From positions 1-10,839 of the forward strand of contig JBIIGV010000095.1 in the NCBI GenBank assembly GCA_044236265.1: a stretch of DNA of 10,839 nt. The letters are read 5' to 3'. A model generated the notes under the pieces. That model saw nothing but the letters and a program-made list of their open reading frames with translations. It was not told the DNA's origin and searched no databases. Made by a program: the position numbers and the translations under genes. Shown here one piece after another: positions 1 to 10,703 of the stretch. How positions within the stretch are numbered: the stretch's first letter is position 1; each line of letters starts with the position of its first letter. Source of the stretch: Oligoflexales bacterium (GTDB taxonomy: Bacteria; Bdellovibrionota_B; Oligoflexia; Oligoflexales; RGVZ01).

Positions 1-1
1 A

Positions 2-1444
2 TTTTTGCCTGACAAAGCGATTGATCTCGTCGACGAAGCAAGTGCAATGATTCGAACAGAGATGGACTCCATGCCTACGGAGGTCGATCAAGCACAAAGG
101 CGTGTCATGCAACTTGAGATCGAAGAAGCAGCTTTGAAAAAGGAAAAAGACAAGGCCAGTATTGATCGACTGTCGGTTCTGCAAAAAGAACTATCCTCAG
201 AGAAGGAAAAACTTCACACACTTCGTGCACAATACGAATCAGAAAAGAACAAGATTCATGGTCTAACAAGCCTAAGAACCGAAATTGAAAAGATCCGTCA
301 AGAGATTGAAAAAGCTGAGCGCGCCTACGACCTCTCAAAAGTTGCAGAGCTGAAACACGGAAAATTGCCAGAGTTGATCAAACTACTCCAGCAAGAGGAG
401 ACTAAGTTTGCAGCCCAAACAGGAGAATCCAGCCGCCTTTTACGAGAAGAGGTAACCGATGACGAAATTGCCGAGATTGTTGCAAGGTGGACCGGAATTC
501 CGGTGAAAAAACTCATGGAGGGTGAGAGAGAAAAAATTCTTAAACTTGACAAAATATTACACGATCGAGTTGTGGGACAGGATGAAGCTGTGCAACTGGT
601 CGCTGACGCCGTAATCCGTGCTCGCGCAGGCATAAAAGACCCAAAGCGCCCCATCGGTAGCTTCTTATTTTTAGGGCCAACCGGAGTCGGGAAAACTGAA
701 CTAGCAAAAGCACTGGCCGAGACCTTATTTGACTCAGAAGATAACATCATTCGCATCGACATGTCTGAGTACATGGAGAAACATGCTGTCAGTCGACTGA
801 TAGGCGCGCCTCCGGGCTATGTAGGCTACGATGAAGGCGGACAGCTTACAGAAGCTGTGCGGCGCAGGCCATACAGCGTCCTCTTATTCGATGAGATCGA
901 AAAGGCACATCCAGACGTTTTCAACATTCTACTGCAACTTTTAGATGAAGGTCGTCTTACAGACAACCAAGGCCGCGTCGTAAACTTTAAGGATACTGTT
1001 GTTATCATGACAAGTAACATTGGCGCTCATTTTCTATTGGAGGGTGTCAATAGTGATGGAGAAATTCGTGACACAGCCCGCAAGCAGGTTATGGACACCT
1101 TGCGCGGTCACTTTCGACCAGAGTTGCTCAACCGAATAGATGATATTGTTCTCTTTAAACCGCTTAAGTTGGACGAAATCAAACAAATTGTCCGATTACT
1201 AACCGCATCCTTAGCTCGTCGACTATCCGATAGACATATTGCGCTTAAACTCACGGACGAAGCCATTTCGCATATTGCTGCGACAGCCTATGATCCACTG
1301 TTCGGCGCGCGCCCCCTGAAGCGATATCTGCAGCGTGATCTCGAGACGAAAATTGGACGTGCGTTGATTGCAGGCGGCATAACTGAGGGATCAAACGTAA
1401 AAGTCGACGAAAAAGGCGGGACGTTATCTGTAACTGTAGTGTAA
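2..1444 (+). CDS. clpB: ATP-dependent chaperone ClpB, 5'-truncated by the window (end of NBD1, coiled-coil middle domain, NBD2)
   Basis: The frame is open from base 2 ([13 protein letters not shown]). It has the long coiled-coil M-domain (…[21 protein letters not shown]), NBD2 Walker [52 protein letters not shown], Walker [16 protein letters not shown] and sensor-2 GARPLKR. The track's TTG start at 5 is not the real start. Confidence 0.97.
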
Positions 1445-2419: not shown

Positions 2420-3229
2420 GTGTCAAACATATTCATGTTTCTAGACTACAAGCAATTTGTCTGCGCCAAGATCAACTCAGAACCATCTCTAGGCCGTGGT
2501 AGCATCAAAAAAATCGCAGAAACGCTGCGCGTTCATCCGAGCCTTATTAGTCAAATCTTGAAGGGAGCAAAGGATTTCAACCCAGAGCAGGCCAACGAAG
2601 TTGCAGCGTTCTTGGGTCTTGATGACGACGCAACAGAATATTTCTTATGCCTTGTCGATATTGAACGCGCTGGCACTGTTAAATTGAAAACATTCTTACA
2701 GAACAAACGAGATAGAATGATTGAAGCTGCAAATCAAAGAAATGTTGCGGCGGAGTCATCTCTGGTAGGAGCCAGTAGACTCAACATCGACCGCTTCAAC
2801 TCACATTGGATCTATGCCACAATCTGCATTCTTTTGCAGGAGCCCAGATATCAGTCTGTACCCGCAATTGCAGATTGCCTGAAACTACCTAATACAACCA
2901 TTTCTGAAGCTCTGGATACGCTTGAAAGCTTGGGACTCATTACAAGAAATTTGGATAATAGCATTGTGGGTGTCTCGGCAATCGACGCTATTGAGTATTT
3001 TGACAAGAAACGATTTCATATTAATCTTCGTCTCAAAGCGTTGGACCGCCTAGGTTCAGACGAGACCAAAACCGGATCAGTAACACTGCCAGTCGCCCTA
3101 TCCCCCAAGGATAAAGATCGTTTGACACATTTAATTAAAAACTTTGTAGATCAAATTAATCATTCACCTGAAAAAATTGAGCCAGGCAATCTCTCATTTG
3201 TAACGGTTGATCTATTCGAAATCGCCTAA
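2420..3229 (+). CDS. TIGR02147/DUF4423-like protein with N-terminal XRE-like HTH (putative transcriptional regulator)
   Basis: The N-terminus IFMFLDYKQFV…GRGSIKKIAETLRVHPSLISQILKGAKDFNPEQANEVAAFLGL…EYFLCLVDIERAG and the central WIYATI…IADCLKL…ISEALDTLESLGLI (wHTH-like) match the pattern of this family. AGGAG at 2408-2412 precedes the GTG start. Confidence 0.8.
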   Translation: MSNIFMFLDYKQFVCAKINSEPSLGRGSIKKIAETLRVHPSLISQILKGAKDFNPEQANEVAAFLGLDDDATEYFLCLVDIERAGTVKLKTFLQNKRDRMIEAANQRNVAAESSLVGASRLNIDRFNSHWIYATICILLQEPRYQSVPAIADCLKLPNTTISEALDTLESLGLITRNLDNSIVGVSAIDAIEYFDKKRFHINLRLKALDRLGSDETKTGSVTLPVALSPKDKDRLTHLIKNFVDQINHSPEKIEPGNLSFVTVDLFEIA

Positions 3230-3233
3230 AAAA

Positions 3234-5150
3234 TCATGACAAGGCGATCATATCAAACACATAAAATGTAAAAGCCTTAGAAGCATTCAAACCGCTAATT
3301 AGCCGTCCTAAATGACTACGATACTCCTCTTCACATTCTTGACCTTCACGATCTAGAATCACCACAACATCATCAGTTCCTGTTGTGATCCCACGCTCTT
3401 TAAGAATTCTAATGCCAGACAGCAGCGTTTCAGCCTCTGTCCCAATTTTAACTACCAGAAAAAGGCTGTTAATAACGCCAGTAGAACTCAATGCATAATA
3501 ACTTTTGAGACGATATGCCAAACACCAAACTTCACCATCTTCTGATAGCGCAATGCTATTCGCAGAGTGCTCTGGACCGAGTTGACTCAGCTCTGAATTT
3601 AGCCGAGGATGCGCACCATTCATTCCCCCAAAAACCTCAAAAAGCACTGGATCAAAAACCAGAGATAGCTGACGTCGTATACGAGCCGGAACAGATTTAA
3701 TCTCAATGACTTTTTGTCGACTGTCGGCCTGCATTACTGGGAGTTTCTGTTTAACTAAACTGATATGAAACGAGTCACACCTGCGATTTAGTGCTCCCTC
3801 GCAAAGTCGCTCCATAAGGTCAGACGAAGACTTGACCGAACTGTGCACAAGGGCCCCAATATAACGAGGTGCTAGAAGAGAGGTTTTTGAAAGATTCTGA
3901 GCCACGACCAGAACATTATCTAACAGCTGCTTGTAAGACACTGCAAGCTCGTCACCGTTGTGAGATCCTTCTTGCATGAACCAATAGTCGTCGGTTAGCC
4001 GAACCATACTCACCTGCCCTGCAATTTTTCCTGAATCAACCTTTGAGGCAATACGATGGTAGAGCAATGGATTATTTGTCACGGTATCAGGCGGCAAATA
4101 GCGAGCAGGTCGACTGCCATATATTTTCCTCCTGGCACCCTTCAATAGTCCCGACTCGGTGAATAAATTTACAAGATCGTCTAGATGTGAGTGATGAACA
4201 GAAGTGGTTCGGCTGAGCTGCTTCAACAATTTAAACCAAGATGATAGCGTACTTGACTCATCCAGTGCGTCTAGCCGCAAACCAACAGTATTTTCATGCC
4301 GCCAAATAACTGATGCGTGGACCAAGCCATTTTGTAATTTAACGTGAAGACCAGGAATTATCCAATTGGGAACCGAATCCTGTTGGATCGAGGCACGTAA
4401 TCCATTAATAGAGATATCTTCAACACCACATACAAGACCTTCGCCGAAGTGATCATCCACGGGACTTATGACAATCGTTGCCCCGCAGGGCGTTCGACGC
4501 GCAACTCGCCGACTATCCTTCAATCGACTAGCCCCAGTGGCTTCAATCATACCCAGAAGAATTCGAGTTACATCGCTGGAATACTGGACATCACGGACGA
4601 GCATCTTATAGCTGAAAACGTCCCGGGAAAATGCCCCTCCCCTAATTCGAACCTGAACCACATCACCTATCTTTAACAGGGGATTTTTTACCGCAGAAAC
4701 TAACGCCATCGAGCTATGACTAACATCAACTGGAGTTGCAAACGTGACGGAATGTTCACCACTAATTTCTGCTATTTGAATATCCGGCCCAAATGAACTT
4801 CGCTTCGAACTCCTGAGATCTGTTATTAGAAGTTTAGACGGCAGCCTGCATTGACCTTGACCGTCAATCACATCTAATTCAAAAGAAATTCGCTGCCCCG
4901 CGAACAATGCAGACGCTGTATATGTTCCAGTTTCTAATGATTCATCGCAAAGCGTTATTCTAGAATCATCAAAAGGTGTCAGAATCTCGCATTTAATTTT
5001 CATCGACAGAGCCCGGGGAAGGTCGCCGCGCGTGACATGCAAAAATACGTCCGCCGCCTCCATCTCAGCCAAAAGTCCCGCAATGATCCGAGGCTTCGAT
5101 ATCACTCGGGAATAATTTGGAATTGTCGTTATTAGACTATCCAGCGGCAT
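3234..5150 (-). CDS. Tandem PilZ-domain protein with a ~320-aa C-terminal domain of unknown (possibly GNAT-like) fold
   Basis: PilZ1 has RSSKR (4800-4814) and DVSHSS (degenerate DxSxxG). PilZ2 has RRVAR (4497-4511) and DISING (4401-4418), followed by ASVIWRHENTVGLRL. The start overlaps the upstream cyclase gene by 14 bp. Confidence 0.75.
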   Translation of the reverse strand: MPLDSLITTIPNYSRVISKPRIIAGLLAEMEAADVFLHVTRGDLPRALSMKIKCEILTPFDDSRITLCDESLETGTYTASALFAGQRISFELDVIDGQGQCRLPSKLLITDLRSSKRSSFGPDIQIAEISGEHSVTFATPVDVSHSSMALVSAVKNPLLKIGDVVQVRIRGGAFSRDVFSYKMLVRDVQYSSDVTRILLGMIEATGASRLKDSRRVARRTPCGATIVISPVDDHFGEGLVCGVEDISINGLRASIQQDSVPNWIIPGLHVKLQNGLVHASVIWRHENTVGLRLDALDESSTLSSWFKLLKQLSRTTSVHHSHLDDLVNLFTESGLLKGARRKIYGSRPARYLPPDTVTNNPLLYHRIASKVDSGKIAGQVSMVRLTDDYWFMQEGSHNGDELAVSYKQLLDNVLVVAQNLSKTSLLAPRYIGALVHSSVKSSSDLMERLCEGALNRRCDSFHISLVKQKLPVMQADSRQKVIEIKSVPARIRRQLSLVFDPVLFEVFGGMNGAHPRLNSELSQLGPEHSANSIALSEDGEVWCLAYRLKSYYALSSTGVINSLFLVVKIGTEAETLLSGIRILKERGITTGTDDVVVILDREGQECEEEYRSHLGRLISGLNASKAFTFYVFDMIALS

Positions 5151-7998
5151 GATTAATTGTCCTTACACCGCTAATGAGTGTGCAAGCGAACTTGATGTTA
5201 AACCTGGATGTTGGCAACACATCAAATTCCACAAGATTCTCGCGAACAAACGCATAAGATGCTTGACTAGAAATTTTCTCGATAGCACTGCAGGAGATAG
5301 CGAGTTTAGCGGGACTACCATCGATCACTATATGCTTCATCAATCCCTCTAACTTACAAACCTCGTCGATACCGCTACCGATTACATCAATTTGCCCAAA
5401 CGTCTCGGTCCCTACTAGACCAAGAAAATACTTTCCATAATGTAGAAGTGCGCGCGCACCCTTACAGCCAATATCCTTTGCTACAAAATCTGCGTACTGC
5501 GCGAGATTTCGCAATTTATGAACGAAATTTGGATCAATAGACGGATCATGATCCGATCCATCCCATGTAATAATCACGGCATCACCGATAGTTTTCCGAA
5601 TCACACCACGAAGCTGTTCTTGGGCTTTCTTATTCACTAAATCATAGAAATTTCCGTAAGCTCGTGCTTTTAACTCCGTATCGTGGGAAAGATCTGAGCT
5701 TCCCACCAGATCAAACAAGAGAAGAAATGACGTCTTCGGCTTGCCGATCGTTGTCGGTAAATTTCGCGCTTTAGCGGCTTCGATAATTTTGGTTCTGATC
5801 TCCTTGTCACCGATAAGCCGGCTTGTCAACTCACCTAAAGCAACCACCGATGACCGCTGGCTCATCACCTCAAGGGCTGCTACAAAAATCGCCTCAGTGG
5901 ACTCCACAACCTGCACCACTGATGGGCTCGCAGGAGGATCGCCTGAAATTGTGAATAACGTAACAACAAAATTTCGTGTCTCTGGCGCAAGTGGAATCGC
6001 CGCGATACTCTCAGATCGCATAAGCTCAAAAAGAGACTGCGTCATTGGATGCATCTGGCTTTTAATCTCCCGAACATCTTTTACATAGCTACTTCGGCGC
6101 TCCATGAAGGCGACAACCGTGGGACCGATGGGCGATGCCCCTCCAGTTGCGAGATTGAGTGGATGTTTACTCAAGAACGCCCAAGCATCGCTTGGAAGTC
6201 CACAATGAGCAACAGCGACTCCTTGATCTCCAATCTTTGTGTGAATAGCTACAGCACACTTACAGTGATACGCAATAGACCTTGCATAGAGCGATAGGAA
6301 GTCTGCCGGTCTTTCGCAAAGGGCAAGCTCCAAATGCAGCATTTTGTGCAAATCCCGTGATACCTGGCTTGCGCTGTTAAGGTCCCGTACTATCATTGAC
6401 GACACCAAACCCTCAAAAACTGATAAAACAGCGCGAATATTCTCACGCTCTTCAGCAAGTCCATCGGCTCTAACCATTTTCTCTCTCAGGGCGGCATCTT
6501 TAAATTTTGTCATCATAATTGTCCCAACAACCTGCTCGTTGACCCTGATTGGAATTATGCAAAACAGATCAAATCCTGAGAGCGCTGTATTTGCACCCAA
6601 TCCAAGCCTTTTAGAATATGCAGCAAACGATTCGAATAAAGCCGAATCTCCATACAAAAGTGACCGCAAGGTTACCGCTCCAGGAATTGTGCCATCGTCG
6701 AAAACTTCTGACGTTTTTGAATGACTATCAAATGAATATGTAACAGGCCGACCAAGCGGAAGATTTATGGTTATGGTTATTCTTCCACAGTGCAAAAATT
6801 CACCGAGCATCGGCAGAACTGACTTTAGAGATTCAAGCTGAACTTCGGGTCGTTTACCGCGAAAACTATGAAACTGTTGATTGATAGAATCGAGTAGAAA
6901 ATCACGACGAATTCTACGGTAGAGCTTACCTAAAAGACCGATCGTTACAAAGCCTCCTGCATTCCCAGCGGCCAAGCCAAGCGCAGACAGTGACAACACA
7001 TTAAAAACGTATACTGGCGGGTAATCCACTACCTGTATAAGACCAATGACTCTGCCAGCATCAAGGATGCCACAGCTCCACATCAACGCGGATACCTTAT
7101 CTTTTTGTCGATAAAACTTGATGGCTCCAAACGTTGCCATTAAGAACAAAATAGCAGACCAATATGTAGCTTGCCGTAGAAATGGCCAGAACAGCAAAGA
7201 TCCCGCAATCAGGACAACGGCCTTTATTGCAAACCATAATCTTCGAGTCCAAACAGAGTTTAGCCTTGGATCGGGAATCACAAACATCAAGCACGCAGCC
7301 GTCATGAGCGATCGTAATGCAGCGTTTCTATAGTTACCTTCCGGAATAGCGGCATCCCATAACCCAGTCGACAGCGTTAACGAACCTATCAAAAGCAATG
7401 CACTAATTTGCAAGTTTCCTGGCTCGGACTTACTCGCAGGATTGAGGGCAATGAGCCTCTTTGTCGAAACTGCCAAGGCAGCAAGCAAAATGAGAGCAGA
7501 AACCAGCGCAAGCAGCAATCCACCTGCTTGTATTGACTCTACCAAATGAGGAACTGTAAGAATGCTGCTATCATTGGCTTCCCTCGGTAGAATTCCAACA
7601 AAATACCCCATCCTTGCAGTTAATGGCTTTTTTCCGACAATTTCATATCGCTCTCCTGGCTCAACCTGATAAACATTCAACCGCAACCAACTGTCGGACA
7701 TGGTTCCGGAAACTACGGTAATAGGAAGAACGTCCCCATCAGTCCCAAGGCGTCGTAGCTGATGGCTCCTTAGAATCTGCCCGAGTAACACAAAACGTTT
7801 AGTGGAGATAAACTGCCATTTCGCCACGCACTCGCTCTCGCTACACTGATTCTCAACTTGTGAAAGCTGAATCTCTGTTGCGCCAGAACCCCGCATTTTC
7901 AAATGAGCTATGAGTCCAGCACCCAAATACATGACTATCGCAATCGTAAACATGGCGATAAATGAATGTTTTTGGCTTGTACCGACAGACTCATTCAT
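5137..7998 (-). CDS. Membrane-bound class III nucleotidyl (adenylate/guanylate) cyclase-family protein: N-terminal TM, extracytoplasmic domain, ~7 TM helices, two GAF-like domains, cyclase domain
   Basis: Cyclase motifs LLLFDLVGSS, IRKTIGDAVIITW and ARALLHYG…GLVG…QIDVIGSGIDEVCKLE. GAF-like endings FCIIPIRVNEQVVGTIMM and SESIAAIPLA…FVVTLF. Several hydrophobic segments lie at about aa 155-360. ATGA overlap with the upstream gene at 7995-7998. Confidence 0.82.
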   Translation of the reverse strand: MNESVGTSQKHSFIAMFTIAIVMYLGAGLIAHLKMRGSGATEIQLSQVENQCSESECVAKWQFISTKRFVLLGQILRSHQLRRLGTDGDVLPITVVSGTMSDSWLRLNVYQVEPGERYEIVGKKPLTARMGYFVGILPREANDSSILTVPHLVESIQAGGLLLALVSALILLAALAVSTKRLIALNPASKSEPGNLQISALLLIGSLTLSTGLWDAAIPEGNYRNAALRSLMTAACLMFVIPDPRLNSVWTRRLWFAIKAVVLIAGSLLFWPFLRQATYWSAILFLMATFGAIKFYRQKDKVSALMWSCGILDAGRVIGLIQVVDYPPVYVFNVLSLSALGLAAGNAGGFVTIGLLGKLYRRIRRDFLLDSINQQFHSFRGKRPEVQLESLKSVLPMLGEFLHCGRITITINLPLGRPVTYSFDSHSKTSEVFDDGTIPGAVTLRSLLYGDSALFESFAAYSKRLGLGANTALSGFDLFCIIPIRVNEQVVGTIMMTKFKDAALREKMVRADGLAEERENIRAVLSVFEGLVSSMIVRDLNSASQVSRDLHKMLHLELALCERPADFLSLYARSIAYHCKCAVAIHTKIGDQGVAVAHCGLPSDAWAFLSKHPLNLATGGASPIGPTVVAFMERRSSYVKDVREIKSQMHPMTQSLFELMRSESIAAIPLAPETRNFVVTLFTISGDPPASPSVVQVVESTEAIFVAALEVMSQRSSVVALGELTSRLIGDKEIRTKIIEAAKARNLPTTIGKPKTSFLLLFDLVGSSDLSHDTELKARAYGNFYDLVNKKAQEQLRGVIRKTIGDAVIITWDGSDHDPSIDPNFVHKLRNLAQYADFVAKDIGCKGARALLHYGKYFLGLVGTETFGQIDVIGSGIDEVCKLEGLMKHIVIDGSPAKLAISCSAIEKISSQASYAFVRENLVEFDVLPTSRFNIKFACTLISGVRTINHAAG

Positions 7999-9092
7999 GC
8001 TGGAAGTTCTCCCGGCGCTTCACCCAATAGAGCATAGATGCGATTGCGATCAACGCCGGTCGCTGCAAGAAGTTGCGCTATGCGGCACTCGACAATACGC
8101 GTTATTATGTCAACAGACTTAAATGAACAACATGATCTAAATTCAAGAGTCCCATACCTCGTTGGCCTGATATATGACATATCTCTTACAGGAAAAAACG
8201 GATCCATAGGGAACAGACGAGGGGATTGGTTCATTTGATTCACCAAAGCCTGTAAATTATTTGCCGGAAAAGTTGGATATGTATGCAGTAAATATTCTTT
8301 ACCTAGTGTATCGGCATACATTTTTGTTCGGGCATTATCATAAACCTGACCATGAAATCTATTCGCGCGCGTGAATTTACGGCTAACGAGATGATCCAAA
8401 TTATACAATATCGGAAGGTATTTAAGTGACTCCTCAGAACTCGCGTTCAAATGGACGTGAGTTGAGGCAATATAAGCGGGAAAAAATGGATCCTGAGTCG
8501 GTCTTCGCTCTGATTTTACCATAAATGTATTTGTTATACCCCTAAGCCTAGGCACAGAGACCAAGTCCATGTTTCTTGGGGGAGTGGGCAGACAGCTAAT
8601 GTCGAGTCGCTCCAAATTTACAGCAGCCAATGCTTCGTCAACCTCTGAAAAAATCTGACCAATAAGATCTCTCAGCTGAGATACAGATCTCCTTGGAGGC
8701 AGAGACACCTCGAGAATATGCCAAGCAAAGTCCGGTTTAATCGTAACATAACCAATGTCGGTATCTTTACTCACACGACCTGGTTGATCCGTAATGCCAC
8801 GGTCTACGTAACCAAATTTCTCCATCAAAATTTTAGTCATTAGAATATATTCGGAACGGGTTGCTAAACGAATCTCCTGGTTAGTCCTCTGGGCGATGAA
8901 ATACTCAACCTCTAGCCCGATTGTTAAATTGGATTCCTCATAGTTCCAAAAAGGAACTTTTTTTTGTAAGAAAAGATGCTGGCGTAATTTCTCAACCGTC
9001 ATGAGATCTGGCTTAAAGATGCTACTTTCACAATTTTCCATTTCCACCCCCAACGTTGATGCGATCTGTTTCGGATAATTAATCGGGATCAT
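7995..9092 (-). CDS. Glutamate-cysteine ligase family 2 (GCS2)-like / GS-fold ATP-dependent carboxylate-amine ligase
   Basis: Motifs occur in the expected order: TIGLEVEY (ExE), ILEVSLPP, STHVHLN (HxH) and YIRPTRYGTLEFRS (R…TxExR). The start is uncertain: ATG 9092, or ATG 9041 behind GGGGGTGG. Confidence 0.8.
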   Translation of the reverse strand: MIPINYPKQIASTLGVEMENCESSIFKPDLMTVEKLRQHLFLQKKVPFWNYEESNLTIGLEVEYFIAQRTNQEIRLATRSEYILMTKILMEKFGYVDRGITDQPGRVSKDTDIGYVTIKPDFAWHILEVSLPPRRSVSQLRDLIGQIFSEVDEALAAVNLERLDISCLPTPPRNMDLVSVPRLRGITNTFMVKSERRPTQDPFFPAYIASTHVHLNASSEESLKYLPILYNLDHLVSRKFTRANRFHGQVYDNARTKMYADTLGKEYLLHTYPTFPANNLQALVNQMNQSPRLFPMDPFFPVRDMSYIRPTRYGTLEFRSCCSFKSVDIITRIVECRIAQLLAATGVDRNRIYALLGEAPGELPA

Positions 9093-9132
9093 TAACGCTC
9101 AAGATCGACTTCACCGTATCGTTACTTGGTGG

Positions 9133-9234
9133 TCAGTCGACACAACTCGGCCAAATCGATGTTTTGTTACTCCGGGGTAAAGAATCAGTCTTTTGACGAT
9201 GGCGATATTTCGTGATTAGTTTCATTGATCTCAT
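9133..9234 (-). CDS. Small 33-aa peptide MRSMKLITKYRHRQKTDSLPRSNKTSIWPSCVD (candidate precursor/signal peptide; not in the ORF track)
   Basis: Translated by hand from ATG (9234) to TGA (9135-9133). SD GAGGTG at 9249-9244 lies 9 nt before the ATG, and a second in-frame ATG is at 9225. The ORF is co-oriented with the ligase gene and ends 40 nt before it. Confidence 0.6.
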   Translation of the reverse strand: MRSMKLITKYRHRQKTDSLPRSNKTSIWPSCVD

Positions 9235-9325
9235 ACCTTTGATCACCTCGTCCTGTTACAGACGAAAAAATACATTCCGAGCATTTTTTTGCTAGTTTGT
9301 CAGCTTGAACCAGAAACATTGACCA

Positions 9326-9348
9326 ATGATCTAATAAGCTTAGATCAT
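9326..9348. promoter_or_regulatory. Perfect 9-bp inverted repeat in the divergent promoter region (operator candidate)
   Basis: ATGATCTAA-taagc-TTAGATCAT lies roughly midway between the divergent starts at 9234 (-) and 9434 (+). Confidence 0.55.
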
Positions 9349-9433
9349 AGAAGGAGCTCCGCATCAATTGAAGACCCTACGAAGACCAACTTGCCCCTCG
9401 TCGAATGTAAGAAAACGGCACGGAGGATGTTTA

Positions 9434-10171
9434 ATGACCGACAATCGTAAACTGATTTTAAGCTATTCGAACATCGCTTTCGCCGCTGACACCATCGCTC
9501 AATCCCAACAGGAAGGATTCGAACTCGTTCCATCAAAAGGAAAGTCTCGAATTATTGACGAAATTATATCTTTAAAGCCTTTTGCTGTTGCAATTGATGG
9601 GGTCTATTGCGAATCGAGATCAATGAAGGCAACATTTCTTTTGCAAAAGATTCGTCACGTTGTACAAACGACACCGGTATTCTTATTTAATTCAGATGAC
9701 GCAGATCATGTAAAGCTTATGGCTGACGACTTGGTCTACGCCGTCATAACAGGACCGGCTGATCTTGGTAAACTTACCTGCGCAATCAAGAAATACATCA
9801 ACACACCCAAGAGGGGTGGACGATCCGAAAGAGTTAGAAGCCAGGTTCAACTTCCATGTCTACTTAAGAAACTAGGAACGTCAGGTCTCATGCAAGGGAA
9901 GATTTGTGATCTCAGTCCCAAAGGAATGAAAATTTTACTTGAGCGTCCGTGCGATGATTGGAGTACCGGGGATGAACTACGTTTCTCAATCCCGAAAAAG
10001 AGCGATACAACATCACATCTAGACGGATACGGCCACCTCCGCTGGTCACAAAAACAGGAGGTTGGCAATGGCTTTGTCAACGTCCACCTGGGAGTTGAGT
10101 TCAGCCAGCTGCCGCTGCCAACTCTTTACGAGTTTCTCGATCTATTGAATAACACCAGAGCAGCTGCATAA
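9434..10171 (+). CDS. Degenerate receiver-like domain fused to a C-terminal PilZ domain (245 aa)
   Basis: GGAGG at 9422-9426 supports ATG 9434 over the track's TTG 9368. A receiver-like beta/alpha pattern (KPFAVAIDG…LLQKIR…TPVFLF…VITGP) is followed by PilZ features GKICDLSPKGM…GHLRW…HLGVEF. Confidence 0.75.
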   Translation: MTDNRKLILSYSNIAFAADTIAQSQQEGFELVPSKGKSRIIDEIISLKPFAVAIDGVYCESRSMKATFLLQKIRHVVQTTPVFLFNSDDADHVKLMADDLVYAVITGPADLGKLTCAIKKYINTPKRGGRSERVRSQVQLPCLLKKLGTSGLMQGKICDLSPKGMKILLERPCDDWSTGDELRFSIPKKSDTTSHLDGYGHLRWSQKQEVGNGFVNVHLGVEFSQLPLPTLYEFLDLLNNTRAAA

Positions 10172-10196: not shown

Positions 10197-10703
10197 ATGA
10201 GAGCCAGGAAACGCTTCCAATTAATCCCTCCGCTTGGGTTTCTGCTTATTCCATGGAGCTCCGTCGTTAAAAGTGAGGATGTCGACCTTCGTCTTGAGGT
10301 CGAAGGAACCATCCAACCACAGCCAACATGGCGCGATGAAACGAACATGATTATCACAAATCTTACATTTAACTTCGAAGGCATCGCTAATCCGAACCGC
10401 ATCAACAAAGATGTCGACTCTGAACCAAAGTATGCAAAACTCGTCGATGCGGGCAAGCAATTGCTCACACCAATCGAACTCTATCGCCCGAAAAAATGCC
10501 GGATCGGCGAAACAGGCATTGACGATGCCCATGTTCAGTTTATCCACAACAATCATGTCCATCGCCAAGATGCCCAAATTCTAATTATGCAGTACCGGCT
10601 CCATGAACTTAAGATTCGCTTTGCGTCTCAGGGATCCTACGGCGGATTATCTGGCACCGTAAGATGTGATCTCCCAGGCATGCTGCGGTATACATACGAC
10701 TAA
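10197..10703 (+). CDS. Putative secreted beta-rich protein (168 aa)
   Basis: Basic N-region (MRARKR) plus a hydrophobic stretch suggests a signal peptide. It has two Cys and a C-terminus LRYTYD. GGGGA lies upstream of the ATG. Confidence 0.7.
   Translation: MRARKRFQLIPPLGFLLIPWSSVVKSEDVDLRLEVEGTIQPQPTWRDETNMIITNLTFNFEGIANPNRINKDVDSEPKYAKLVDAGKQLLTPIELYRPKKCRIGETGIDDAHVQFIHNNHVHRQDAQILIMQYRLHELKIRFASQGSYGGLSGTVRCDLPGMLRYTYD

Follow-up and report, generated by a model that had tools for sequence, protein, structure and literature searches.

Autoinducer systems that pair a synthase with a membrane receptor are known, with CqsA/CqsS, LuxM/LuxN and PhcB/PhcS as examples. Among described PilZ proteins, PixB (MXAN_2604) of Myxococcus xanthus carries two PilZ domains and a GNAT domain; the available text of its description reports that it binds cyclic di-GMP (c-di-GMP), has a role in motility and development, and controls motility via its acetyltransferase domain (PMC8316039). 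Here we describe a three-gene cassette from an Oligoflexales bacterium (GenBank assembly GCA_044236265.1, contig JBIIGV010000095.1) that encodes a predicted carboxylate-amine ligase, a membrane sensor ending in a class III cyclase-like domain, and a protein that joins PilZ domains to a tandem GNAT fold. The window, meaning the whole stretch of 10,839 nt that was analyzed, is an entire contig of a 3.25-Mb genome (G000; L### denotes fetched loci, G### genomes and C### contigs of the analysis sample). Comparison across genomes confirmed that the three large genes form a conserved, co-inherited unit in two Bdellovibrio-type phyla. Our best explanation, about which our confidence is evenly poised, is a FliA-driven, c-di-GMP-gated synthase/receptor loop for a small molecule, an acyl/gamma-glutamyl amide.

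A first-pass annotation, made from the letters of the window, had reported co-oriented genes with 4-nt and 14-bp overlaps, and its coordinates hold for the three minus-strand open reading frames (ORFs): the ligase and sensor ORFs share 4 nt (7995-7998) and the sensor and PilZ-GNAT ORFs share 14 nt (5137-5150). The features of the locus are as follows.

9133..9249, minus strand: ribosome site and 33-codon ORF (ATG at 9234, stop ending at 9133)
9068..9095, minus strand: predicted sigma-28 (FliA)-type promoter
7995..9092, minus strand: ligase ORF, 365 amino acids (aa), likely true start ATG 9041 (M18)
5137..7998, minus strand: membrane sensor ORF, 953 aa
Sensor, about aa 36-155: extracytoplasmic domain, preceded by the first transmembrane segment (TM1)
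Sensor, to about aa 355: multi-pass membrane region
Sensor, aa 380-715: GAF region
Sensor, aa 753-890 (window 5742-5329, minus strand): class III cyclase-like domain
3234..5150, minus strand: PilZ-GNAT ORF, 638 aa
PilZ-GNAT protein, aa 12-300: PilZN-PilZ-PilZ
PilZ-GNAT protein, aa 313-636 (window 4214-3243, minus strand): tandem GNAT acyltransferase fold

A conserved three-gene unit in two phyla

A neighborhood comparison, which the first-pass annotation had suggested, shows that the trio recurs beyond the window. Among the 17 non-redundant ligase loci counted for the window's group, all three genes were found in nine (L020, L021, L022, L023, L025, L026, L028, L029 and L032). The sensor and PilZ/GNAT genes are fused in L022, and L032 has the trio in another order; three gene orders are known among the trios. 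Four other loci of the 17 carry ligase and sensor up to the contig end, one carries the ligase with the PilZ-GNAT gene, and one (L035) has a PilZ/GNAT-like gene of a second type and a membrane cyclase beside the ligase; at the remaining two the ligase stands with MFS or NIPSNAP genes and no sensor is visible. A profile scan of 130 genomes of the class found a full-length ligase in eight, the sensor in the same eight, and the PilZ-GNAT gene in seven of the eight.

The unit extends into a second phylum, that of G130, which was sampled with 401 genomes, 21 of which matched. Nineteen places were fetched from 17 genomes; L135 and L140 were dropped as other GCS-fold genes, and 17 loci were counted. 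A complete co-oriented trio is present in ten of the 17, and one trio is split over divergent units. The rest comprise one locus of the second type, four with the ligase and a PilZ/GNAT-like gene and no sensor in view, and one that ends at the ligase. At L133 and L128 one partner each lacked a profile match and was identified from alignment and motif. The sensor profile found no match in G130, and it also misses distant members.

Trees for 18 trios have strong splits in common in 9/9 cases for ligase versus PilZ-GNAT and in 7/9 for ligase versus sensor. This large degree of congruence shows co-inheritance of the trio, not matched specificity. The second-type pair of PilZ/GNAT-like gene and membrane cyclase stands beside the same ligase family at L035 (9992-15823) and L122. 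The PilZ/GNAT family of this type (L035, L122 and L138) is collinear with the window family, the matches being weak (probability 0.7% and 13%), so that its PilZ/GNAT-like identity is inferred.

The ligase, the sensor and the PilZ-GNAT protein

The window ligase has no Pfam match, GCS2 included, and one sub-threshold match in NCBIfam. No significant match came from searches of PDB sequences, for which the ligase, the sensor and three alignments served as queries, and alignments of the ligase-family profile to canonical GshA were never significant, so kinship rests on structure. The Atlas clusters the ligase with GCS2 (score 0.94-0.95). The closest fold to its structure model (predicted local distance difference test score, pLDDT, 90) is that of plant glutamate-cysteine ligase (GCL) 2gwc, with Z 26.3, a root-mean-square deviation of 3.4, 304 aligned residues and 14% identity in the structural alignment. 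Further matches are to a YbdK-type enzyme (Z 20.5), other GshA proteins (15-18) and PafA (13.2), and the Foldseek fold match has an E value of 8e-12. The metal/ATP residues (ExE, a third Glu, His/Gln and EFR) are kept: among 29 close homologues E61 and E63 occur in at least 90% and E128, H214, E317 and R319 are invariant, and the set persists in 18 near and distant members, with His or Gln at position 214. These structural matches agree with the GS/GCS fold named in the first-pass annotation, and on the strength of the model the protein is confirmed as a predicted carboxylate-amine ligase of the glutamate-cysteine ligase fold. R309 is conserved. Because R255 is invariant and aligns with a GshA arginine that we take to bind glutamate, glutamate is the likely donor substrate. 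In plant GCL, Arg220 is placed at the active-site tunnel in the available text of PMC6463388.

Given that its closest solved fold is of the plant GCL type, the cassette enzyme might be a spare glutamate-cysteine ligase, with the operon coupling thiol supply to signaling. However, a canonical GshA and a gshB-like gene lie on other contigs of G000, and canonical GshA is found in 115 of the 130 genomes of the class, including all eight with a full-length cassette ligase. The tyrosine of the RY motif of GshA has a role in the cysteine pocket; the EPGG..E, RY and QVN motifs of the G000 GshA correspond to KPDF..E, RL and HVH in the cassette ligase, in a register taken from weak alignments. With the lack of a Pfam GCS2 match in the window protein, these points make a spare enzyme extremely improbable. 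By motif and gene content the cassette ligase is not the housekeeping GshA.

Other ligase-family genes were also seen. At L036 (2-4436) and L034 the ligase family occurs in another context, NIPSNAP - ligase - MFS - second ligase, the last in two pieces. Short fragments of ligase and PilZ-GNAT genes at contig ends (G028:C1:3324-3476, G028:C148:2254-2409 and G088:C80:7-129) may represent assembly breaks or decay, and weak ligase matches occur in G303, G516 and G469.

The sensor has four hydrophobic segments in a simple scan. Its N-terminal region resembles 7TMR-DISM in the Atlas (score 0.80-0.81), a lead only, with no Pfam match; Pfam searches of 12 domain fragments matched PilZ alone, weakly, with no DISM match. 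The GAF domain named in the first-pass annotation scored in 24 of 42 sensor homologues, and L123 has two GAF stretches, which upholds that assignment for the family; in the window protein itself it went unscored. Evidence for the class III cyclase-like domain, likewise named earlier, came from the genome's own 12 class III cyclases, which it matches with an hhalign probability of 95-96% (E 1e-8 to 1e-9); five shuffled controls of the profile match gave at most 1.5%. PF00211 matched none of the 42 sensor members. The cyclase-like domain and its linker are the most conserved part of the sensor, with a mean identity of 65-69% versus 30-46% elsewhere. The metal-binding aspartates D763 and D806 are present in 42/42 sensors and in 13/13 near and distant members. 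All 42 close homologues have K802/D871, the adenine-specifying Lys/Asp pair as defined in the available text of PMC4886424, and the transition-state Asn and Arg are replaced by D878 and K882 in 41/41 sensors. Some active class III cyclases are described there as lacking the Asn (PMC4886424).

The non-canonical cyclase site is compatible with anti-phage nucleotide signaling of a Pycsar-like kind, and L121, one of three distant sensors, weakly matches two PycC models (E 0.0009 and 0.005). However, PADLOC matches none of the three window proteins and the cassette has no Pycsar effector. The extracytoplasmic sensor domain, the FliA-type promoter and the tree congruence also argue against a defense function, to which we assign hardly any probability.

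The third protein had been read as a tandem-PilZ effector. The PilZ domains stand: the window protein has a Pfam PilZ match over the cut-off, and within the RxxxR and D/NxSxxG motifs R113/R117, D142, R214/R218, S247 and G250 are invariant in 25 sequences. In the first PilZ barrel the second motif ends in Ser/Ala in the window clade. What that reading overlooked is the C-terminal half, which has a tandem GNAT fold. With the structure model (pLDDT 76), Foldseek matched the PilZ part to PP4397, YcgR and MrkH and the C-terminal half to the tandem GNATs 5kgh, 7q3a and 2wpw (E 2e-7 to 1e-6), and VIA-align gave Z 14.4 against PP4397 and 8-9 (9.1) against two-domain acetyltransferases. PilZ domains read c-di-GMP, which class III cyclases do not make. 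The earlier idea that this protein is a bare output adaptor gives way to that of a predicted acyltransferase with c-di-GMP-type receptor domains.

The predicted promoter, the short upstream ORF and the flanking genes

A sigma-28 (FliA)-type promoter is predicted to drive the cassette. Its elements are TTAAT (9095-9091) and CCGAAA (9074-9069), separated by 16 nt, with a predicted transcription start near 9061. Counted from the conserved Met of the ligase, the bipartite motif is found 86-107 nt upstream. In a leave-one-out comparison of 16 loci it ranked first in 14, and with six decoy windows in 0-3 of 13. Because the search range was chosen post hoc, three further checks were added. A matrix trained without the window gave the site at 9094 as the best on the window's minus strand (16.1 bits versus 10.1 for the next). 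Genome-wide, at 13 bits, the motif is enriched before genes (21 versus 2 of 1500). For distant loci outside the training set, at most 1 in 30 shuffles reaches the observed site in 10 of 15. The window promoter matches the Bdellovibrio attack-phase (FliA) consensus, given as TTAAG-N16-CCGATA in the available text of PMC3627812, at 9 of 11 positions, and fliA is present in G000. The flanks of flagellin-family genes in G000 contain partial sigma-28 matches only, and a sigma-70 scan found nothing above chance. The sigma-28-type motif in G000 precedes many genes with signal-peptide-like N-termini, as in the Bdellovibrio attack-phase regulon.

Because the promoter site covers the annotated ligase start at 9092, translation of the ligase probably begins at ATG 9041. 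This placement leaves the 33-codon ORF upstream of the promoter. The first-pass annotation had put that ORF at the head of the operon, as an agr-like peptide precursor that the ligase would mature and the receptor would sense. The ORF is present as described, with a ribosome site (9249-9243) that is a 7-nt match to the anti-Shine-Dalgarno (anti-SD) sequence. An ORF with such a site occurs in 0.07% of 3000 intergenic shuffles and in 1 of 303 gene-free 5' flanks of the genome; a looser SD definition is satisfied in 10% of shuffles, and 66% contain any ORF of at least 30 aa. The predicted promoter would separate it from the operon, although transcripts reading through from further upstream may include it.

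A peptide precursor, or a lineage-specific add-on, would be consistent with a ribosome site far above chance and with a fold family that includes PafA. However, no ORF like it was found upstream of 15 other loci, and among 29 homologous loci only one has an SD-supported ORF of 20-80 aa upstream of the ligase, which is unrelated. L021 and L023 have about 90-120 nt between the end of the upstream gene and the ligase ORF, and the scanned neighbors include neither a protease nor a peptide exporter. With the promoter downstream of the ORF, this makes the peptide model very improbable. The exact 33-aa sequence is absent from the protein collection, and Rfam gave no match. Contigs of four DNA runs were compared with the window over 7900-9700; in a relative about 90% identical, a +1/-1 pair 3 nt apart in the ORF keeps the frame and was judged uninformative. 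The ORF could be a lineage-specific gene that is translated, or a remnant; on comparison of the loci it is not a conserved substrate and no part of the conserved unit. Tagging of the PafA/Pup type was considered separately and rejected. Pup-like substrates end in Gly-Gly-Glu/Gln, the 33-codon ORF ends otherwise, and PafA scores Z 13.2 against 26.3 for GCL.

Divergent from the cassette lies a receiver-like and PilZ gene (9368-10171, plus strand, likely start near 9434), found in the same place in L020, L028 and L029. Receiver and PilZ are the domain types of Myxococcus PixA. In a close relative, single-base indels at 9380 and 9394 suggest that a longer N-terminus of this gene is noncoding. Short motifs at about 9290-9350, including a plus-strand TTGACC hexamer, are common to the window, L020, L028 and partly L029, and are probably a promoter or regulator site of the divergent gene. 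Further along (10197-10703, plus strand) a 168-aa protein has no Pfam match; C162 carries a copy with 92% identity as well as two distant paralogues, and relatives cluster in L011. The protein may be pilin-like. On the other side, a TIGR02147/DUF4423 helix-turn-helix gene (2420-3229, plus strand) converges on the cassette with a 4-nt gap and is also downstream in L020, L028 and L029. The window opens with the 3' part of a gene that by its motifs encodes a ClpB-like chaperone (1-1444, plus strand), followed by a two-way terminator-like hairpin at 1472-1499.

A possible signaling loop and its relation to known systems

Additional evidence on function came from a scan of 52 neighbor proteins. EamA carriers were found at L122, L124 and L128, MFS transporters at L134 and L136 and also at L036, S-adenosylmethionine (SAM) methyltransferases at L121, L128 and L133, and a JmjC enzyme at L134. 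A PP2C phosphatase with a cyclic nucleotide monophosphate (cNMP)-binding domain adjoins the cassette at L129, L130, L133 and L134, and it is the only full-length copy in all three such genomes tested; the EamA matches in each genome come to 8-12 domains. Neither a protease nor a peptide exporter was seen among the 52. The presence of exporters and tailoring enzymes suggests a small product, and the cNMP reader beside the cassette suggests a working nucleotide output.

The reading that best accommodates these data is the one the first-pass annotation had offered as its alternative, a synthase/receptor pair for a gamma-glutamyl small molecule. With ATP and metal, the ligase would form an amide between a carboxylate and an amine; the carboxylate would most likely come from the gamma position of glutamate, and the amine would not be cysteine. 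The tandem GNAT would add an acyl group, switched by c-di-GMP at the PilZ domains. A methyltransferase or JmjC enzyme, where present, might tailor the product, and an EamA or MFS carrier might export it. Outside the cell the product would be bound by the membrane protein, whose cyclase-like domain would make or bind a nucleotide signal; in some lineages the adjacent cNMP-binding PP2C would read this signal. Such an autoinducer loop would be tied to the motile (FliA) phase, with no conserved part for the short upstream ORF.

Several observations weigh against this reading. Exporter and tailoring genes are absent from the window, and the subset of neighbors scanned at the closest loci revealed none; satellite genes adjoin a minority of loci, and some of these loci belong to genomes that are related, L129 and L130 closely so. 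At L034 and L036 the ligase stands with MFS or NIPSNAP genes and no sensor is visible, the contigs of L136, L137 and L139 end without one, and L138 has the second-type pair, its cyclase split, with no ligase in view. The NxxxR motif is never canonical in 13/13 aligned near and distant sensors and the adenine-specifying Lys is absent in 8/13 of this wider set, so that the cyclase-like domain may not make cyclic AMP (cAMP). The acyl-CoA pyrophosphate loop of GNATs, Q/R-x-x-G-x-G, is recognizable in L123, L124 and L133 and altered in the window. The path from folds, residues, synteny and a promoter motif to activities, a ligand and a loop is also one that we infer. Finally, PixB-like GNATs may act on proteins, according to the available text of PMC8316039, and the substrate is not readable from sequence.

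A different proposal, along the lines put forward for PixB, is an intracellular relay in which the sensor responds to a cue from outside, such as one derived from prey, and proteins of the motile phase are acylated by the c-di-GMP-gated GNAT and glutamylated by the ligase. PixB provides a precedent, with its c-di-GMP binding and its control of motility through the acetyltransferase domain, as far as the available text goes (PMC8316039). The sigma-28-type promoter, the fusion of sensor and PilZ/GNAT in L022, the PP2C-cNMP gene adjoining in four loci, and the divergent receiver-PilZ gene in the window, L020, L028 and L029 are also consistent with a relay. It leaves the EamA/MFS, methyltransferase and JmjC neighbors unexplained, however. 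The ligase fold is nearest to small-molecule ligases, with PafA far behind, and the loci have no conserved target gene; we therefore regard a relay as possible though rather unlikely.

In another alternative, the sensor would detect an incoming amine, whether a nutrient, a metabolite of the prey or a toxin, and the ligase and GNAT would conjugate it so that it could be used, stored or expelled. Amines are commonly handled by gamma-glutamylation and N-acylation, exporters adjoin six loci, and at L036 an MFS gene lies between two ligases. While these points fit, catabolic genes do not recur, and the cassette has a FliA-type promoter and PilZ control, not a substrate-responsive regulator, which makes amine handling improbable.

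In a bolder form of the synthase/receptor loop, an acylated gamma-glutamyl amide would serve Bdellovibrio-type predators as a new cell-cell signal. Its synthesis would be controlled by c-di-GMP and confined to the hunting phase that FliA drives, and its receptor would have a rebuilt cyclase site that makes a messenger other than cAMP. We consider this unlikely in full. If our best explanation is correct, the loop would represent a new chemical class of bacterial signal and a new receptor type, membrane-GAF-cyclase and not histidine kinase, and would connect the FliA attack-phase program of predatory bacteria with c-di-GMP and with a cyclic-nucleotide-like output. The uniform alteration of the cyclase site is of separate interest for enzymology. 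New in this analysis are the promoter, the occurrence in a second phylum, the satellite genes and the rejection of the peptide as a part of the unit. The first-pass annotation knew of no such combination, and literature searches, from which subscription journals were largely absent, likewise gave no description of the three-gene unit. The unit is not a member of any known system considered; each of its parts has a known fold.

The closest described systems compare as follows. The cassette ligase has the fold and the metal/ATP residues of plant and alphaproteobacterial GCL and of YbdK (the GCS2 fold), and differs from them as a second, patchy paralogue (8 versus 115 of 130 genomes) in which the GshA motifs are replaced. 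With class III adenylyl cyclases the sensor shares the fold, both metal aspartates and, in the window clade, the Lys/Asp adenine pair; it has Asp/Lys in place of the transition-state Asn/Arg, and distant members depart further. PixB, compared by architecture only, has PilZ domains and a GNAT in common with the cassette protein, which differs in an extra PilZN barrel, a tandem GNAT, and a gene that always accompanies those of a ligase with the GCL fold and a cyclase-like membrane sensor. The likeness to agr and PafA/Pup is limited to a superficial layout and the GS/GCS superfold: the cassette has no conserved precursor, protease or histidine kinase, and PafA is a distant fold match. In organization the cassette resembles CqsA/CqsS, LuxM/LuxN and PhcB/PhcS, where, as is predicted for the cassette, a small-molecule enzyme lies beside a multi-pass membrane receptor. 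One difference from these pairs is that the cassette receptor ends in a GAF region and a cyclase-like domain, not in a histidine kinase; another is that the cassette has two enzymes, one of them PilZ-gated, with a predicted gamma-glutamyl/acyl amide chemistry.

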